Shown piece after piece: positions 37,601 through 40,600 of a stretch of 64,000 bases of DNA (position 1 is its first letter; each line of letters opens with the position of its first letter). The position numbers are program-made. The stretch is from Escherichia coli (lineage in GTDB: Bacteria; Pseudomonadota; Gammaproteobacteria; Enterobacterales; Enterobacteriaceae): NCBI RefSeq assembly GCF_044647545.1, contig NZ_CP172818.1, one strand, 5' to 3'.

Positions 37601-40600
37601 GCCGTAAACCCGGCATTATCGCCGTTGCTCCATTGCATGGGCGTGCGGCTGTTGTCACGGGATTTACTGGCGAGGATTGCCAATAACTCGTCGGCATCAC
37701 GACCATCGTTGCGCAGCTCGGCAAACATATTGAGGCTCTCCACGTCGCGATAGTCAGTAATGCGCGTGAAATGCGGGTTGGTCATGCCAATCTCTTCGCC
37801 CTGGTAGATATACGGCGTTCCCTGCATGCCATGCAGCACCATCGCCAGCATTTTTGCCGCAGGCACGCGGTATTCACCTTCATCACCAAAGCGAGAAATA
37901 ATGCGCGGCTGATCGTGGTTACACCAGAACAAGGCATTCCATGCCACGTTGTGCATTCCTTGTTGCCAGTGGCGGAACAATGTTTTCAACGCCACAAAGT
38001 CAGGTTTAGCCAGCGTCCATTTTTCACCACCGGGATAATCGACCTTCAGGTGATGAAAATTAAAGGTCATCGACAATTCACTGCCTGTCAGTGCCGCGTA
38101 TCGCTGGCAATGCTCAAGGCTGGTGGAGGACATTTCACCTACGGTCATTAACCCGCGTGGCGTAAACACATCGCGGTTCATCTCGTGCAAAAACTCGTGT
38201 GCTCGTGGCCCGTCGGTGTAGAAGCGACGCCCGTCGCCATCCAGGTCATCAGGGAAACGTGGGTCTTTGGAGATCAGATTCACCACATCCAGGCGCAACC
38301 CGTCGACCCCACGATCGGCCCAGAACTCACAGACTTTTTTCAGCTCTGCGCGTACCGCTGGATTCTCCCAGTTGAGATCCGCCTGCTCTGGTGCAAAGAG
38401 ATGCAAATAGTACTGTTCGCTTTCCGCATGCCAGCGCCACGCACTACCGCCAAATTTTGAACGCCAGTTGTTCGGTGGCGTTTCTGGTTCGCCATCGCGC
38501 CAGATATAAAACTGGCGGTAAGGGCTTTCTTTGTTCAGCGCCTCGCGAAACCAGGCATGTTGGGTAGAGGTATGGTTAAACACCATATCGAGAATGATAC
38601 GAATCCCGCGCGATTTTGCCTGCGTCACCAGTTCGTCAAAATCGTCCAGCGTGCCGTAAGTGGGATCAATCGCCGTATAGTTCGCTACGTCGTAACCGTT
38701 ATCGACCTGGGGAGAGACATAAAAGGGGGTTAGCCAGATGGCATCAACGCCCAGTTTATGCAGATAGCCCAGGCGTTGGATAACGCCACGTAAATCGCCG
38801 GTGCCGCTACCCGTGGTGTCCTGAAAACTCTTTGGATAAATCTGGTAGATAACGCCGTTTTGCCACCAGTGGGGAAGATTAGTCATTACGTTATTCCTGC
38901 AAATGCGAGAGGGCGCAATTGCGCCCCGAAGAAAATTAAACAATGTCCAGCGTGCCCAGGCGGTATTTCCGCTGATAGATAAACGAGGTGAGTACAATCG
39001 GGATGATGATGGCGATAGCCATTGCCAGCGCAAACACCTGCCAGTAGCTCGGTTGAATCGAGAGAATTCCCGGCAGGCCGCCTACGCCGATGCCATTCGC
39101 CATAACGCCGTTCAGGCCGCATAGCAATCCTGCCAGACCAGAACCAATCATCGCGCACAGCATCGGGAAGCGATATTTCAGGTTGATGCCGTACATTGCA
39201 GGCTCAGTGACCCCAAGCCAGGCGGAGATAGCGGCAGGCACGGAGATCTCGCGTTCATTGTGCTTGCGGCTGGAAATGATAATGCCTATCACGGCGGAGC
39301 CCTGAGCGATATTCGACAGCGCAATCAGCGGCCACACTGGCGTGCCACCCATGCTTTGAATCATCTGCAAATCAATAGCAAGGGTGGTCTGGTGTACGCC
39401 GGTGATCACCAGCGGCGCGTACAGGAAGCCAAACAATGCCGCACCAATCGGAGCAAAGCTGCCGGTCATCAGGTGACGTACCGCAAAGGCAACGCCATCG
39501 CCAATCATGCGACCAAACGGACCAATCAGCGCATGGGCGAGGAACACCGCGAGGATCAGCGAACAGACGGGTACCACCACCAGATAGAGGTAATCCGGCA
39601 CGATGCGTTTAAGGCGAGTTTCAATAACGCCCAGCGCCAGTCCGGCTAACAGTGCCGGGATCACCTGCGCCTGATAGCCTACTTTGGCGATGCTGAACAT
39701 GCCAAAGTCCCACACTTCCGGCAGCTGCTGCCCGAGCAGATAAGCGTTCATCAGCTGTGGAGAAACCAGTGTCACGCCAAGCACGATACCGAGGATCGGC
39801 GTGCCGCCCATTTTTTTCACCGCTGACCAGCAAATCCCGACCGGCAGGTAGAAGAAGATCGCTTCACCGATCAACCACAGAAAATCGTAGATCGTTTGCA
39901 GGGAAGGGTACATTTGCGCCAGCGTTTGACCGTTGCTCATGGGCAAATCGCCGATCACATTGCGAAAACCGAGGATCAAACCGCCGCTAATCAACGCGGG
40001 CAGCAACGGGAAGAAGATCTCCGCGAAATGAGAGATCAACTGCTCATGCCATTTCATATTCTGCCGGGCGGCTTTTTTTACCTGCTCTTTATCAACCTGC
40101 GCCTGTCCGGTTGACGCTATTAGTGCTTGATAGTAATCACCCACATTGGTGCCAATCACCACCTGAAATTGCCCGGCATTGGTGAAACAGCCTTTCACCA
40201 TGGGGAGTTGCTCAATTTCTTTCGGTCTGGCATTGGCCGGTTGGTTGAGGACAAAGCGCAGGCGAGTAATACAGTGGCTCACTGTCGCAATATTGCCGCG
40301 CCCGCCGACCAGTTCAATCAACCGATCGATATCCGTTTGGTTTATTTTGCTCATCATAAAGCCCCATGGCAGATGACATTTTTGGTTGGCTGCAGAATAT
40401 ATTGCGCGGAAAAATTTAAAAACGGGAACGTTCCCGAAACGCAGCGAAGATCACAATTTATCGTTCAGGAAACGATCAGGACAGGGTGGCGGGGATGATG
40501 ATTTGTTGCGGTTCGCTGCGCCCGGTTACCTGTGCGATCAATTGGCAGGCCGCCTGGCGTCCAGCTTCGGCGTAACCGGGATCTACGGTGACGATCTCCG

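Follow-up and report, generated by a model that had tools for sequence, protein, structure and literature searches.

The spacer between treR and treB of Escherichia coli carries two short palindromic elements, which raises the question of whether both of them serve as operators of the trehalose repressor TreR. A first-pass annotation of the locus had suggested that they may be two TreR operators of different affinity, or else sites for two different regulators. TreR represses treBC, with trehalose-6-phosphate acting as the inducer (PMC3505978, PMC3938415); repression takes place without trehalose-6-phosphate, and the genes are under catabolite control, being repressed by glucose and activated without it (PMC3938415). 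Binding by purified TreR and its release by trehalose-6-phosphate are described in the literature cited by both papers (PMC3505978, PMC3938415). Operator coordinates for TreR were not found in the full-text literature that we searched. Here, we analysed the spacer within a 64-kb stretch of E. coli DNA (the window, to which all coordinates refer) and propose that it is probably the promoter and control region of treBC with a single TreR operator.

Materials and methods

Conservation was assessed in 75 distinct treR-treB spacers from Enterobacteriaceae, whose treR genes are 83-99% identical, and chance levels were estimated from dinucleotide shuffles of the spacer. TreR relatives that are at least 85% identical are uninformative on distant operators. 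A distant set of TreR orthologues with 41-49% identity was compiled by a representatives search and contig look-ups and contained four readable spacers, L086, L088, L089 and L090; L085, a C-to-T converted contig, and L091, which ends before any treB, were left out of this set.

Organization of the treR-treB spacer

The spacer in the window is 118 bp long and identical to that of E. coli K-12 MG1655. From treR towards treB, we distinguish the following features:

41423..40476, minus strand: treR coding sequence, 315 aa, stop codon TGA at 40478..40476 (ORF list and RefSeq annotation of identical E. coli DNA)
40460-40476: dyad 2, 17 bp, with 6-bp arms (ATCGTT and AACGAT) and a 5-nt gap (cagga)
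40437..40458, minus strand: predicted CRP site AATTGTGATCTTCGCTGCGTTT, half-site TGTGA at 40455..40451, centre at about -60.5/-61.5 from the predicted start
40423-40436: putative TreR operator (palindrome 1), perfect 14-bp palindrome CGGGAACGTTCCCG with the core GGGAACGTTCCC at 40424-40435, centre at about -42.5 from the predicted start
40410..40422, minus strand: T5-A3-T5 tract directly after the operator, in which TTTTTA (40422..40417) is the putative -35 hexamer
40394..40399, minus strand: putative -10 hexamer TATTCT, with TAnnnT as the conserved pattern, downstream of the operator core at a distance of 24 nt
40386..40387, minus strand: predicted treB transcription start, an A, 7-8 nt past the -10 hexamer and placed from the position of that hexamer only
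40365..40362 and 40357..40355, minus strand: Shine-Dalgarno-like GGGG and treB start codon ATG, GAGG/GGGG being kept before the ATG across species
40357..38936, minus strand: treB coding sequence (ORF list and RefSeq annotation)

Both dyads of the first-pass annotation, GGGAACGTTCCC at 40424-40435 and ATCGTTcaggaAACGAT at 40460-40476, were confirmed, and the second does overlap the treR stop codon, by one base (40476). The first is perfect, as described, and its full extent is larger, namely the 14 bp of CGGGAACGTTCCCG at 40423-40436. The statement that the two dyads share only the bases AACG does not hold: 11 of 13 positions are the same in CGTTCCCGAAACG (40429-40441) and CGTTCAGGAAACG (40462-40474), which lie 33 bp apart.

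A conserved palindrome as the TreR operator

Palindrome 1 already stands out by its sequence, and its conservation makes this decisive. A perfect 14-bp palindrome is present in 1.9% of the shuffled spacers and a 12-bp one in 5.5%. Operators of LacI-family proteins have been described as even palindromes with a central CG, based on a search for motifs of 14-24 bp that ended with even motifs of 16-22 nt (PMC4052901), and palindrome 1, which is of even length and has its central CG at 40429/40430, conforms to this rule for the LacI/GalR family. The 12-bp core GGGAACGTTCCC is invariant in all 75 Enterobacteriaceae spacers. Beyond this family, TGGGAACGTTCCCA is kept in L086, L088 and L090, that is, in three of the four readable spacers of the distant set, while L089 has near-copies. 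Palindrome 1 thereby leaves a phylogenetic footprint ahead of treB. Across all genera, identity to E. coli amounts to 0.93 for the operator, 0.81 for the CRP site, 0.50 for dyad 2 and 0.31 for the promoter spacer.

The operator centre is located 72 nt upstream of the treB ATG, and the palindrome abuts the putative -35 hexamer on one side and the predicted CRP site on the other. The distance between the CRP half-site TGTGA and the operator is exactly 20 nt in 75 of 75 spacers as well as in L088 and L089, and 24 nt separate the operator core from the -10 hexamer in E. coli, L086 (TATAAT), L088 (TATGCT) and L089 (CATAAT). With these two distances, the operator would be centred at around -42.5 and flanked by a class-I-type CRP site and the -35 hexamer. 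Taken together, the LacI-family geometry, the invariance among Enterobacteriaceae and the recurrence at fixed distances from the CRP site and the -10 hexamer in distant orthologues support the assignment of palindrome 1 as the TreR operator. The perfect palindrome is the well-known and extremely conserved trehalose repressor site and, as such, an ordinary finding, this operator being known since the 1990s. Compared with the TreR operator described for E. coli treBC (Horlacher and Boos 1997), which belongs to the same locus, palindrome 1 shows no difference, whereas dyad 2 differs in geometry, sequence and conservation. The idea of two TreR operators of different affinity is thus borne out for palindrome 1, by geometry and conservation, but not for dyad 2, which departs from the operator in both respects and matches it at background level.

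A predicted CRP site as the second regulator site

The second regulator site of the spacer is, as far as the sequence can tell, that of CRP; it is located between the two dyads and was missed by the first-pass annotation. The notion of sites for two different regulators was therefore correct in spirit but attached to the wrong element, dyad 2 instead of the conserved predicted CRP site at 40437-40458. The heptamer TGTGATC is invariant and precedes the operator by a constant 20 nt in each of the 75 spacers; it is also present in L087 and L088. In the predicted CRP 22-mer, the left half is perfect and the right half degenerate (CTGCG versus TCACA; by inspection). The site is conserved, of the TGTGA-N6-TCACA type and centred near -61.5, as would be expected for class I, the position of the centre depending on the predicted start. 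In two Enterobacter species, natural insertions of 1.8 kb split the treR stop codon from the CRP site and leave the CRP-operator block intact. Similar to class I CRP promoters such as lacP1, in which CRP is bound near -61.5, treBC combines a perfect TGTGATC half, a TTT flank, a poor -35 hexamer and glucose sensitivity with a predicted centre at about -60.5/-61.5. It differs from them by the degenerate second half of the predicted site and by the repressor site, which would sit immediately between CRP and the -35 hexamer.

According to the conservation profile, the TTTT right after the operator is conserved. It is from the observed sequence, conservation, spacing and statistics that we infer the promoter elements and the start site. 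On the minus strand, starting from the treR stop codon, the treBC switch would consist of 17 weakly constrained nucleotides (dyad 2), the CRP site (40458..40437) and the adjoining TreR palindrome (40436..40423), directly followed by a weak T-rich -35 hexamer, a TAnnnT -10 hexamer and a leader of approximately 30 nt. A TreR dimer bound to the palindrome at about -42.5 would have CRP at about -61 on one side and the -35 hexamer on the other, a position in which it would block the CRP-dependent recruitment of RNA polymerase, and the repressor would be released by trehalose-6-phosphate; this steric mechanism, too, is what we infer from the arrangement of the sites. Dyad 2 would play no part in the switch and would be a lineage-variable sequence at the extreme 3' end of treR. 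The importance of these findings is slight beyond correct annotation, treBC being a textbook sugar operon controlled by a LacI-family repressor and CRP. What is useful is a map of the control region (CRP site, operator, -35 and -10) in window coordinates, along with the TreR core GGGAACGTTCCC and its spacing to the CRP site and the -10 hexamer, which are fixed in Enterobacteriaceae and partly so down to 41-49% protein identity.

Dyad 2: a chance dyad or a possible weak treR 3' hairpin

By sequence alone, dyad 2 is no more than what chance produces. Dyads whose arms measure 6 bp and whose gap is 0-8 nt are present in 31% of the spacer shuffles; the 64-kb window has 195 of them, which corresponds to 0.36 per 119 bp. 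Column identity at dyad 2 is 30-50%, its identity across genera is 50% as compared to 93% for the operator, and it leaves no phylogenetic footprint. Neither of its two CG dinucleotides is kept throughout Citrobacter, several species of which have lost them, an unrelated sequence is found at its position in Salmonella diarizonae, and it is replaced in Enterobacter too. Identity within Escherichia reaches 0.97, and 4697 of 5426 E. coli genomes share the same 41-mer of dyad 2. The E69 lineage of E. coli carries AACTAT and has thereby lost the CG of the arm next to the CRP site. In Citrobacter, the conservation of dyad 2 exceeds that of the promoter spacer, which looks neutral (0.74 versus 0.50). 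We regard a pure chance dyad as a serious candidate explanation, if one with clearly less than an even chance of being right. Short dyads with the generic AACG core of LacI-family sites should not be taken for operators without evidence from conservation.

The other reading with a substantial, though still less than even, chance is that dyad 2 represents at most a weak hairpin of the treR mRNA, either a 3'-end structure or a residual structure of the terminator type. Different stems are found in a common register in five clades: ATCGTT/AACGAT in E. coli, ATCGCT/AGCGTT in Citrobacter, AGCGTC/GACGCT in Leclercia, AGCCTC/GAGGCT in Silvania and AGCTGA/TCAGCT in a Kluyvera-like isolate. This pattern, seen in the sequences, hints at a weak treR 3' hairpin. 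At least five of six Watson-Crick pairs can form in the dyad 2 register in 19 of the 75 sequences, as compared to 4% in the null; at the level of clades, the binomial P value is 0.005 with E. coli and, by a hand estimate, approximately 0.02-0.08 without it. In-register pairing was seen in 53.6% of cells versus 49.2% in shuffles, none of 500 of which reached the observed value, and a similar covariation score was obtained when the 3' partner was slid by a few columns. The E. coli RNA hairpin, which begins with the last base of the treR stop codon, has a predicted energy of -5.0 kcal/mol (p = 0.18 in a 31-nt context), and the mean z-score across the 75 species is -0.2, which speaks against a family-wide structure.

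As an intrinsic terminator, dyad 2 falls short, with 6-7 pairs, of which only two are G-C, the tail AAAUUGUGAUCUU and no call in the consensus scan; the same scan called the hairpin in one of five species tested, Citrobacter youngae. When compared with intrinsic terminators and 3' stabilizing stem-loops, the stems of Leclercia and Silvania in the dyad 2 register are stronger (-9.7 to -10 kcal/mol) and followed by UUUAUUG, whereas the E. coli stem has G-C pairs at only two of six positions and an AAAUUG tail. Between MG1655 positions 4466176 and 4467576, an interval that covers the spacer and treR, the Term-seq tables of PMC7815308 contain no 3' end, and the expression of treR may be too low for detection. 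In PMC10687069, treR has only one row, which refers to a different genome record, NZ_CP023861.1. A search of 40200-40700 gave no Rfam match at E <= 1. We also considered a long-range fold between dyad 2 and one operator half (-16 kcal/mol, z = -1.7) and discarded it as not significant and specific to E. coli.

The operator palindrome as a possible treR terminator

Compatible with the operator function of palindrome 1, although unlikely in our view, is that in E. coli the same palindrome doubles as the intrinsic terminator of treR, the RNA reading CGGGA-ACGU-UCCCG followed by U5A3U5. In this doubtful case, treR transcripts would end inside the treB promoter, and dyad 2 would be a mere hairpin in the 3'-UTR upstream of it. 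The operator hairpin together with the T tract is the sole terminator-like call on the treR strand between 40200 and 40700 and has an energy of -7 kcal/mol, but its stem comprises only 5 bp and has a z-score of -1.3 relative to shuffles. The G at 40423 (minus strand) lengthens the stem in E. coli, where the T run is also longer than in most genera; the latter have CCCATTTTC, which corresponds to a 4-bp stem followed by four U residues, and the T run could just as well be accounted for by the -35 region. In the literature, treR is reported to be located upstream of treB yet outside the treBC operon, which would agree with a terminator between the genes, while Term-seq detected no 3' end at MG1655 44662xx. 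This absence is not decisive, because treR is probably too weakly expressed.

Dyad 2 and a possible auxiliary TreR site

A role of dyad 2 as a second TreR operator is not supported. In contrast to the geometry of LacI-family operators, it is 17 bp long with an asymmetric 5-nt gap and no central CG, and the only 14-mers with a central CG that it offers are off-centre and have 5 and 7 mismatches to the operator (7 by inspection). The better of these is also the best TreR-like sequence in the neighbourhood of the operator:

40467-40480: TreR-like pseudo-site AGGAAACGATCAGG, 9 of 14 matches, central CG at 40473-40474, overlapping the right arm of dyad 2 and the treR stop codon

Sites as good as AGGAAACGATCAGG or better occur 188 times in the 64-kb window (0.35 per 118 bp), 89 of them with a central CG, and the TreR half-site GGGAACG is found 154 times in the window with at most one mismatch. 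The resemblance of dyad 2 to the operator is thus no better than background, and poor conservation, wrong geometry and 5 of 14 mismatches at background frequency speak against it as a second operator.

According to PMC3505978, RegulonDB lists two TreR sites at treBC, which is why a weak auxiliary TreR site still has to be considered. It would be the 14-mer AGGAAACGATCAGG rather than the 17-bp dyad, with its central CG (40473/40474) at about -86.5, and we consider it quite improbable. It is equally improbable that such a site, 44 bp or approximately four helical turns away from the main operator and with a CRP-induced bend in between, would raise the local concentration of TreR or stabilize repression. 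Besides the two sites listed by RegulonDB, a LacI-TreR chimera has shown looping-like behaviour (PMC3505978), AGGAAACGATCAGG is the best TreR-like sequence within 500 bp of the operator and has a central CG, its left half GGAAACG is one base off GGGAACG, and the 11-of-13 direct repeat ties its region to the operator flank. Dyad 2 is also well conserved within E. coli. Set against this are the 5 of 14 mismatches and the number of equally good sites in the window, and the fact that conservation beyond Escherichia extends to the TreR proteins and the main operator but not to the auxiliary site; in the E. coli E69 lineage, moreover, the other CG of dyad 2, that of the CRP-side arm, is destroyed. 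Two TreR-type palindromes are present in L089, and double operators therefore do occur in the TreR family, but the auxiliary operator of L089 is located downstream, over the predicted start site, and not upstream.

TreR is reported to be a dimer (Horlacher and Boos 1997), and with 315 aa it presumably lacks the C-terminal tetramerization extension of LacI, which we count against an auxiliary site. The lac operators O2 and O3, which are of low affinity and act by looping through the LacI tetramer, are the model behind the idea of two affinities. AGGAAACGATCAGG would resemble O3 in quality and distance (9 of 14 matches, 44 bp away) but occurs at background frequency and is not conserved, and the second site of L089 lies over the start site; tetramerization of TreR was not directly assessed, according to PMC3505978. 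Very unlikely is the stronger version, in which dyad 2 of the Escherichia lineage would contain a weak auxiliary TreR half-operator (AGGAAACGATCAGG, about -86.5), four helical turns away and beyond the CRP-induced bend, so that two TreR dimers would sandwich CRP. If this were true, repression of treBC would be linked with the treR stop codon and the 3' end of that gene, and a dimeric LacI-family repressor would use a looping-free double operator assisted by the CRP bend. Should dyad 2 prove to contain an auxiliary TreR site, this would be of modest interest as an example of a dimeric repressor with two sites that flank an activator.

That dyad 2 is bound by another factor, either a LacI-family protein with an AAACG core (Cra, GalR/GalS, RbsR or PurR-like) or an unknown dimer on 6-5-6 inverted repeats, is hardly credible: it does hold two AACG/CGTT cores typical of LacI-family sites and has an intermediate conservation in Citrobacter (0.74), but known consensus sequences match it at only 7-10 of 12-16 positions (by eye), and the literature examined names no such regulator of treBC. 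The likeness to Cra, GalR, RbsR and PurR sites, by eye only the generic AAACG core, was rejected as evidence. Across genera, the sequence of dyad 2 varies while the pairing register persists, which is the signature of a structure and not of a sequence recognized by a protein.

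Layout of the treR-treB spacer

The locus is E. coli DNA: a 1-kb query there matched 5425 of 5426 complete E. coli genomes, annotated with treR and treB, and the 161 bases around the spacer do not differ from K-12 MG1655 (NC_000913.3 coordinate minus 4425823 gives the window coordinate). Both genes lie on the minus strand, treR before treB, and the 118-bp spacer is therefore located 3' of treR and 5' of treB. The two dyads that the first-pass annotation had placed in this spacer are indeed found there. However, the perfect palindrome (palindrome 1) is 14 bp long rather than 12 bp, the second, imperfect dyad (dyad 2, 40460-40476) overlaps the treR stop codon by one base only, and the AACG core is not all that they share, as the 13-nt segments CGTTCCCGAAACG (40429-40441) and CGTTCAGGAAACG (40462-40474), 33 bp apart, form a direct repeat with 11/13 matches.

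41423..40476, minus strand: treR, stop codon TGA at 40478..40476
40357..38936, minus strand: treB
40423-40436: palindrome 1, CGGGAACGTTCCCG, perfect, 14 bp
40399..40394, minus strand: putative -10 hexamer, TATTCT in E. coli, TAnnnT pattern
40467-40480: best TreR-like 14-mer in dyad 2, AGGAAACGATCAGG, central CG at 40473/4, 5/14 mismatches

Palindrome 1 and the predicted treB promoter

Palindrome 1 is unusual on sequence alone, unlike dyad 2: when the spacer was dinucleotide-shuffled, a perfect 14-bp palindrome arose in 1.9% of cases, whereas a dyad equal in quality to dyad 2 arose in 31%, and the 64-kb window contains 195 dyads of that quality. From 80 treR loci of different Enterobacteriaceae species (TreR 83-99% identical), we extracted 75 distinct treR-treB spacers. 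The core of palindrome 1, GGGAACGTTCCC, is unaltered in all 75, TGTGATC is invariant and the core always follows it by exactly 20 nt, giving a conserved block of TTGTGATC.TCGC....TTTCGGGAACGTTCCC(A/G)TTTT. The sole conserved positions further downstream are those of a TAnnnT hexamer, 24 nt 3' of the core. We take this hexamer to be the probable -10 of the treB promoter; a weak -35 would be formed by the conserved TTTT(TA) at 40422..40417. Transcription of treB would then start from the A at about 40387/40386, which would centre the operator near -42.5 and put a CRP-type 22-mer (40458..40437) at about -60.5/-61.5, a class I position; these positions derive from conservation rather than from mapped ends. 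The 17 bp between the presumed -35 and -10 (40400-40416) are unusually variable even within Escherichia, with an identity of 0.68 as compared to 0.89-1.00 for the adjoining segments.

Operators of the LacI family are characteristically palindromes of even length centred on CG (PMC4052901). Palindrome 1 is of even length with CG at its centre, is invariant wherever TreR adjoins treB and occupies the gap between the activator site and the -35, and on these grounds we identify it as the TreR operator. A TreR dimer bound at -42.5 would cover both the -35 and that half of the CRP site which is nearer to the promoter, and would thereby block the CRP-dependent recruitment of RNA polymerase. In the E. 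coli laboratory strain HB101 (L084, NZ_CP184671.1 2609380-2609711), IS1 lies directly beside the operator, after CCCGAAACG (window plus strand), and takes the place of the spacer on the side towards the CRP site and treR.

The operator and promoter architecture persists in far more distant TreR orthologues, which were taken from a search of representatives. The order TGTGA-20 nt-GGGAACGTTCCC is kept at 47% identity (L088), with 24 nt to TATGCT, and TGGGAACGTTCCCA is kept at 49% (L086), with 24 nt to TATAAT, and at 41% (L090). A Logan contig (L085, 3930-4090) has undergone C-to-T conversion, as would be expected from bisulfite treatment; its tttatgtgattgttgttgggttttgggaatgtttttatttt matches a CRP-operator block of the Klebsiella/Raoultella type in which each C appears as T, and the translation of its gene does not correspond to the query. 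Escherichia sp. E1V33 (L003) and Escherichia whittamii (L004) retain a treR with 96-97% identity and, downstream of 3448, lack the CRP-operator block and treB, leaving the repressor gene orphaned.

Dyad 2 as a candidate second operator

The first-pass annotation had suggested that the two dyads may be TreR operators of different affinity or sites for two different regulators. Dyad 2 is 17 bp long with a 5-nt asymmetric gap and without a central CG, and thus lacks operator geometry. At least as good a match to the TreR operator as AGGAAACGATCAGG occurs at 188 sites in the window, and 89 of these have CG at their centre. Since the species compared all conserve TreR together with its main operator, a second operator with a function would be expected to leave a footprint; none was detected at dyad 2 among the 75 Enterobacteriaceae spacers, in which its anchored column identities are 30-50%. 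Compared segment by segment with E. coli, identity is 0.93 in the operator and 0.81 in the CRP site, but 0.50 in dyad 2 and 0.31 in the promoter spacer. Both CG dinucleotides of dyad 2 are gone in several Citrobacter species, and unrelated sequence takes its place in Salmonella enterica subsp. diarizonae and in most Enterobacter, Klebsiella, Raoultella and Kosakonia. In E. chuandaensis and E. quasihormaechei (Enterobacter; L035 1613-3416 and L045 3448-5309), an insertion of ~1.8 kb separates the treR stop from the CRP site, and the CRP-operator block is intact in both. L035 retains a duplicated treR 3' end beside TGTGA, and several ORFs lie on the minus strand of the L045 insertion, among them one of 159 aa that by eye looks possibly Hcp-like (type VI secretion). 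With the wrong geometry, a background-level match and no footprint, dyad 2 was rejected as a conserved TreR operator. The earlier interpretation is thus supported in part: the spacer contains one real TreR operator, which was already known and is not novel, rather than two conserved ones, and there is a second regulator, predicted to be CRP, with its conserved site between the two dyads rather than at dyad 2.

An auxiliary TreR site overlapping dyad 2 is unlikely, but we retain it as an alternative, since two TreR operators at treBC are on record in RegulonDB according to PMC3505978, the 9/14 pseudo-site overlapping dyad 2 is the sole sequence candidate in the spacer, and two-operator designs occur in the TreR family. 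The example is the L089 locus (45% identity, 2786-2865), where two TreR-type palindromes are found: TGGGAACGATTCCA follows TGTGA at the canonical distance of 20 nt, and TGGGAACGTTACCA comes 45 bp further downstream; however, this second site lies over the predicted start. Coordinates of the two RegulonDB sites were not found in the literature covered. Reg-Seq lists TreR at the yedK promoter on the basis of mass spectrometry, and a genomic SELEX survey mentions TreR binding within sdhCDAB (PMC7567609, PMC4797297); TreR may thus have targets other than treBC, although neither of these two is in the window.

A putative hairpin at the treR 3' end

Dyad 2 nevertheless does not look wholly neutral. 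Its identity in Citrobacter is 0.74, as compared to 0.50 for the promoter spacer, and among 5426 E. coli genomes identical 41-mers were found in 4697 for dyad 2 and in 5010 for the operator. When the E. coli geometry is used as the register (left arm at stop codon base 3, right arm 4 nt before TGTGA), different clades have different stems, which include double, compensating changes.

Stems in the dyad 2 register
Escherichia: ATCGTT/AACGAT
Citrobacter: ATCGCT/AGCGTT
Leclercia: AGCGTC/GACGCT
Silvania: AGCCTC/GAGGCT
Kluyvera-like isolate: AGCTGA/TCAGCT

The mean in-register Watson-Crick pairing is 2.99/6, as compared to 1.0-1.6 in unrelated registers and 2.45 +/- 0.11 with arms permuted among sequences, and at least 5/6 pairs form in 19 of 75 sequences (null 4%). 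A binomial test at the level of clades gives P = 0.005 with E. coli included and an estimated ~0.02-0.08 with E. coli left out as the ascertaining case. Pair counts are less favourable, with pairing in 53.6% of cells and similar covariation scores in slid controls; the mean z from folding species by species is -0.2. Because the register is conserved while the sequence varies, an RNA or DNA structure rather than a protein site is suggested, and we read dyad 2 as a putative weak hairpin, confined to some lineages, at the treR mRNA 3' end, any function of which would be hypothetical. Due to the 13-nt direct repeat, dyad 2 is also complementary in RNA to the left half of the operator (long-range fold of -16 kcal/mol, z = -1.7); the repeat is E. 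coli-specific and roughly at chance level.

With -5 kcal/mol, two G-C pairs and an AAAUUG tail, the E. coli stem does not resemble a terminator, and among the orthologous hairpins the Citrobacter youngae version alone was called in a terminator scan. On the treR strand, a terminator-like structure was called solely at the operator palindrome with the T5A3T5 behind it, which might possibly double as the treR terminator; no 3' end maps there, and published Term-seq data contain none between MG1655 4466176 and 4467576. A fairly strong RNA 3' end, classed as not Rho-dependent, is reported on the minus strand at window 40353 (MG1655 4466176; PMC7815308 supplement), 4 nt inside the treB ORF and just after GCCAUGGGGC and then UUUAUGAU. 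It could represent a ~35-nt leader RNA transcribed from treBp, or else a site of attenuation or processing.
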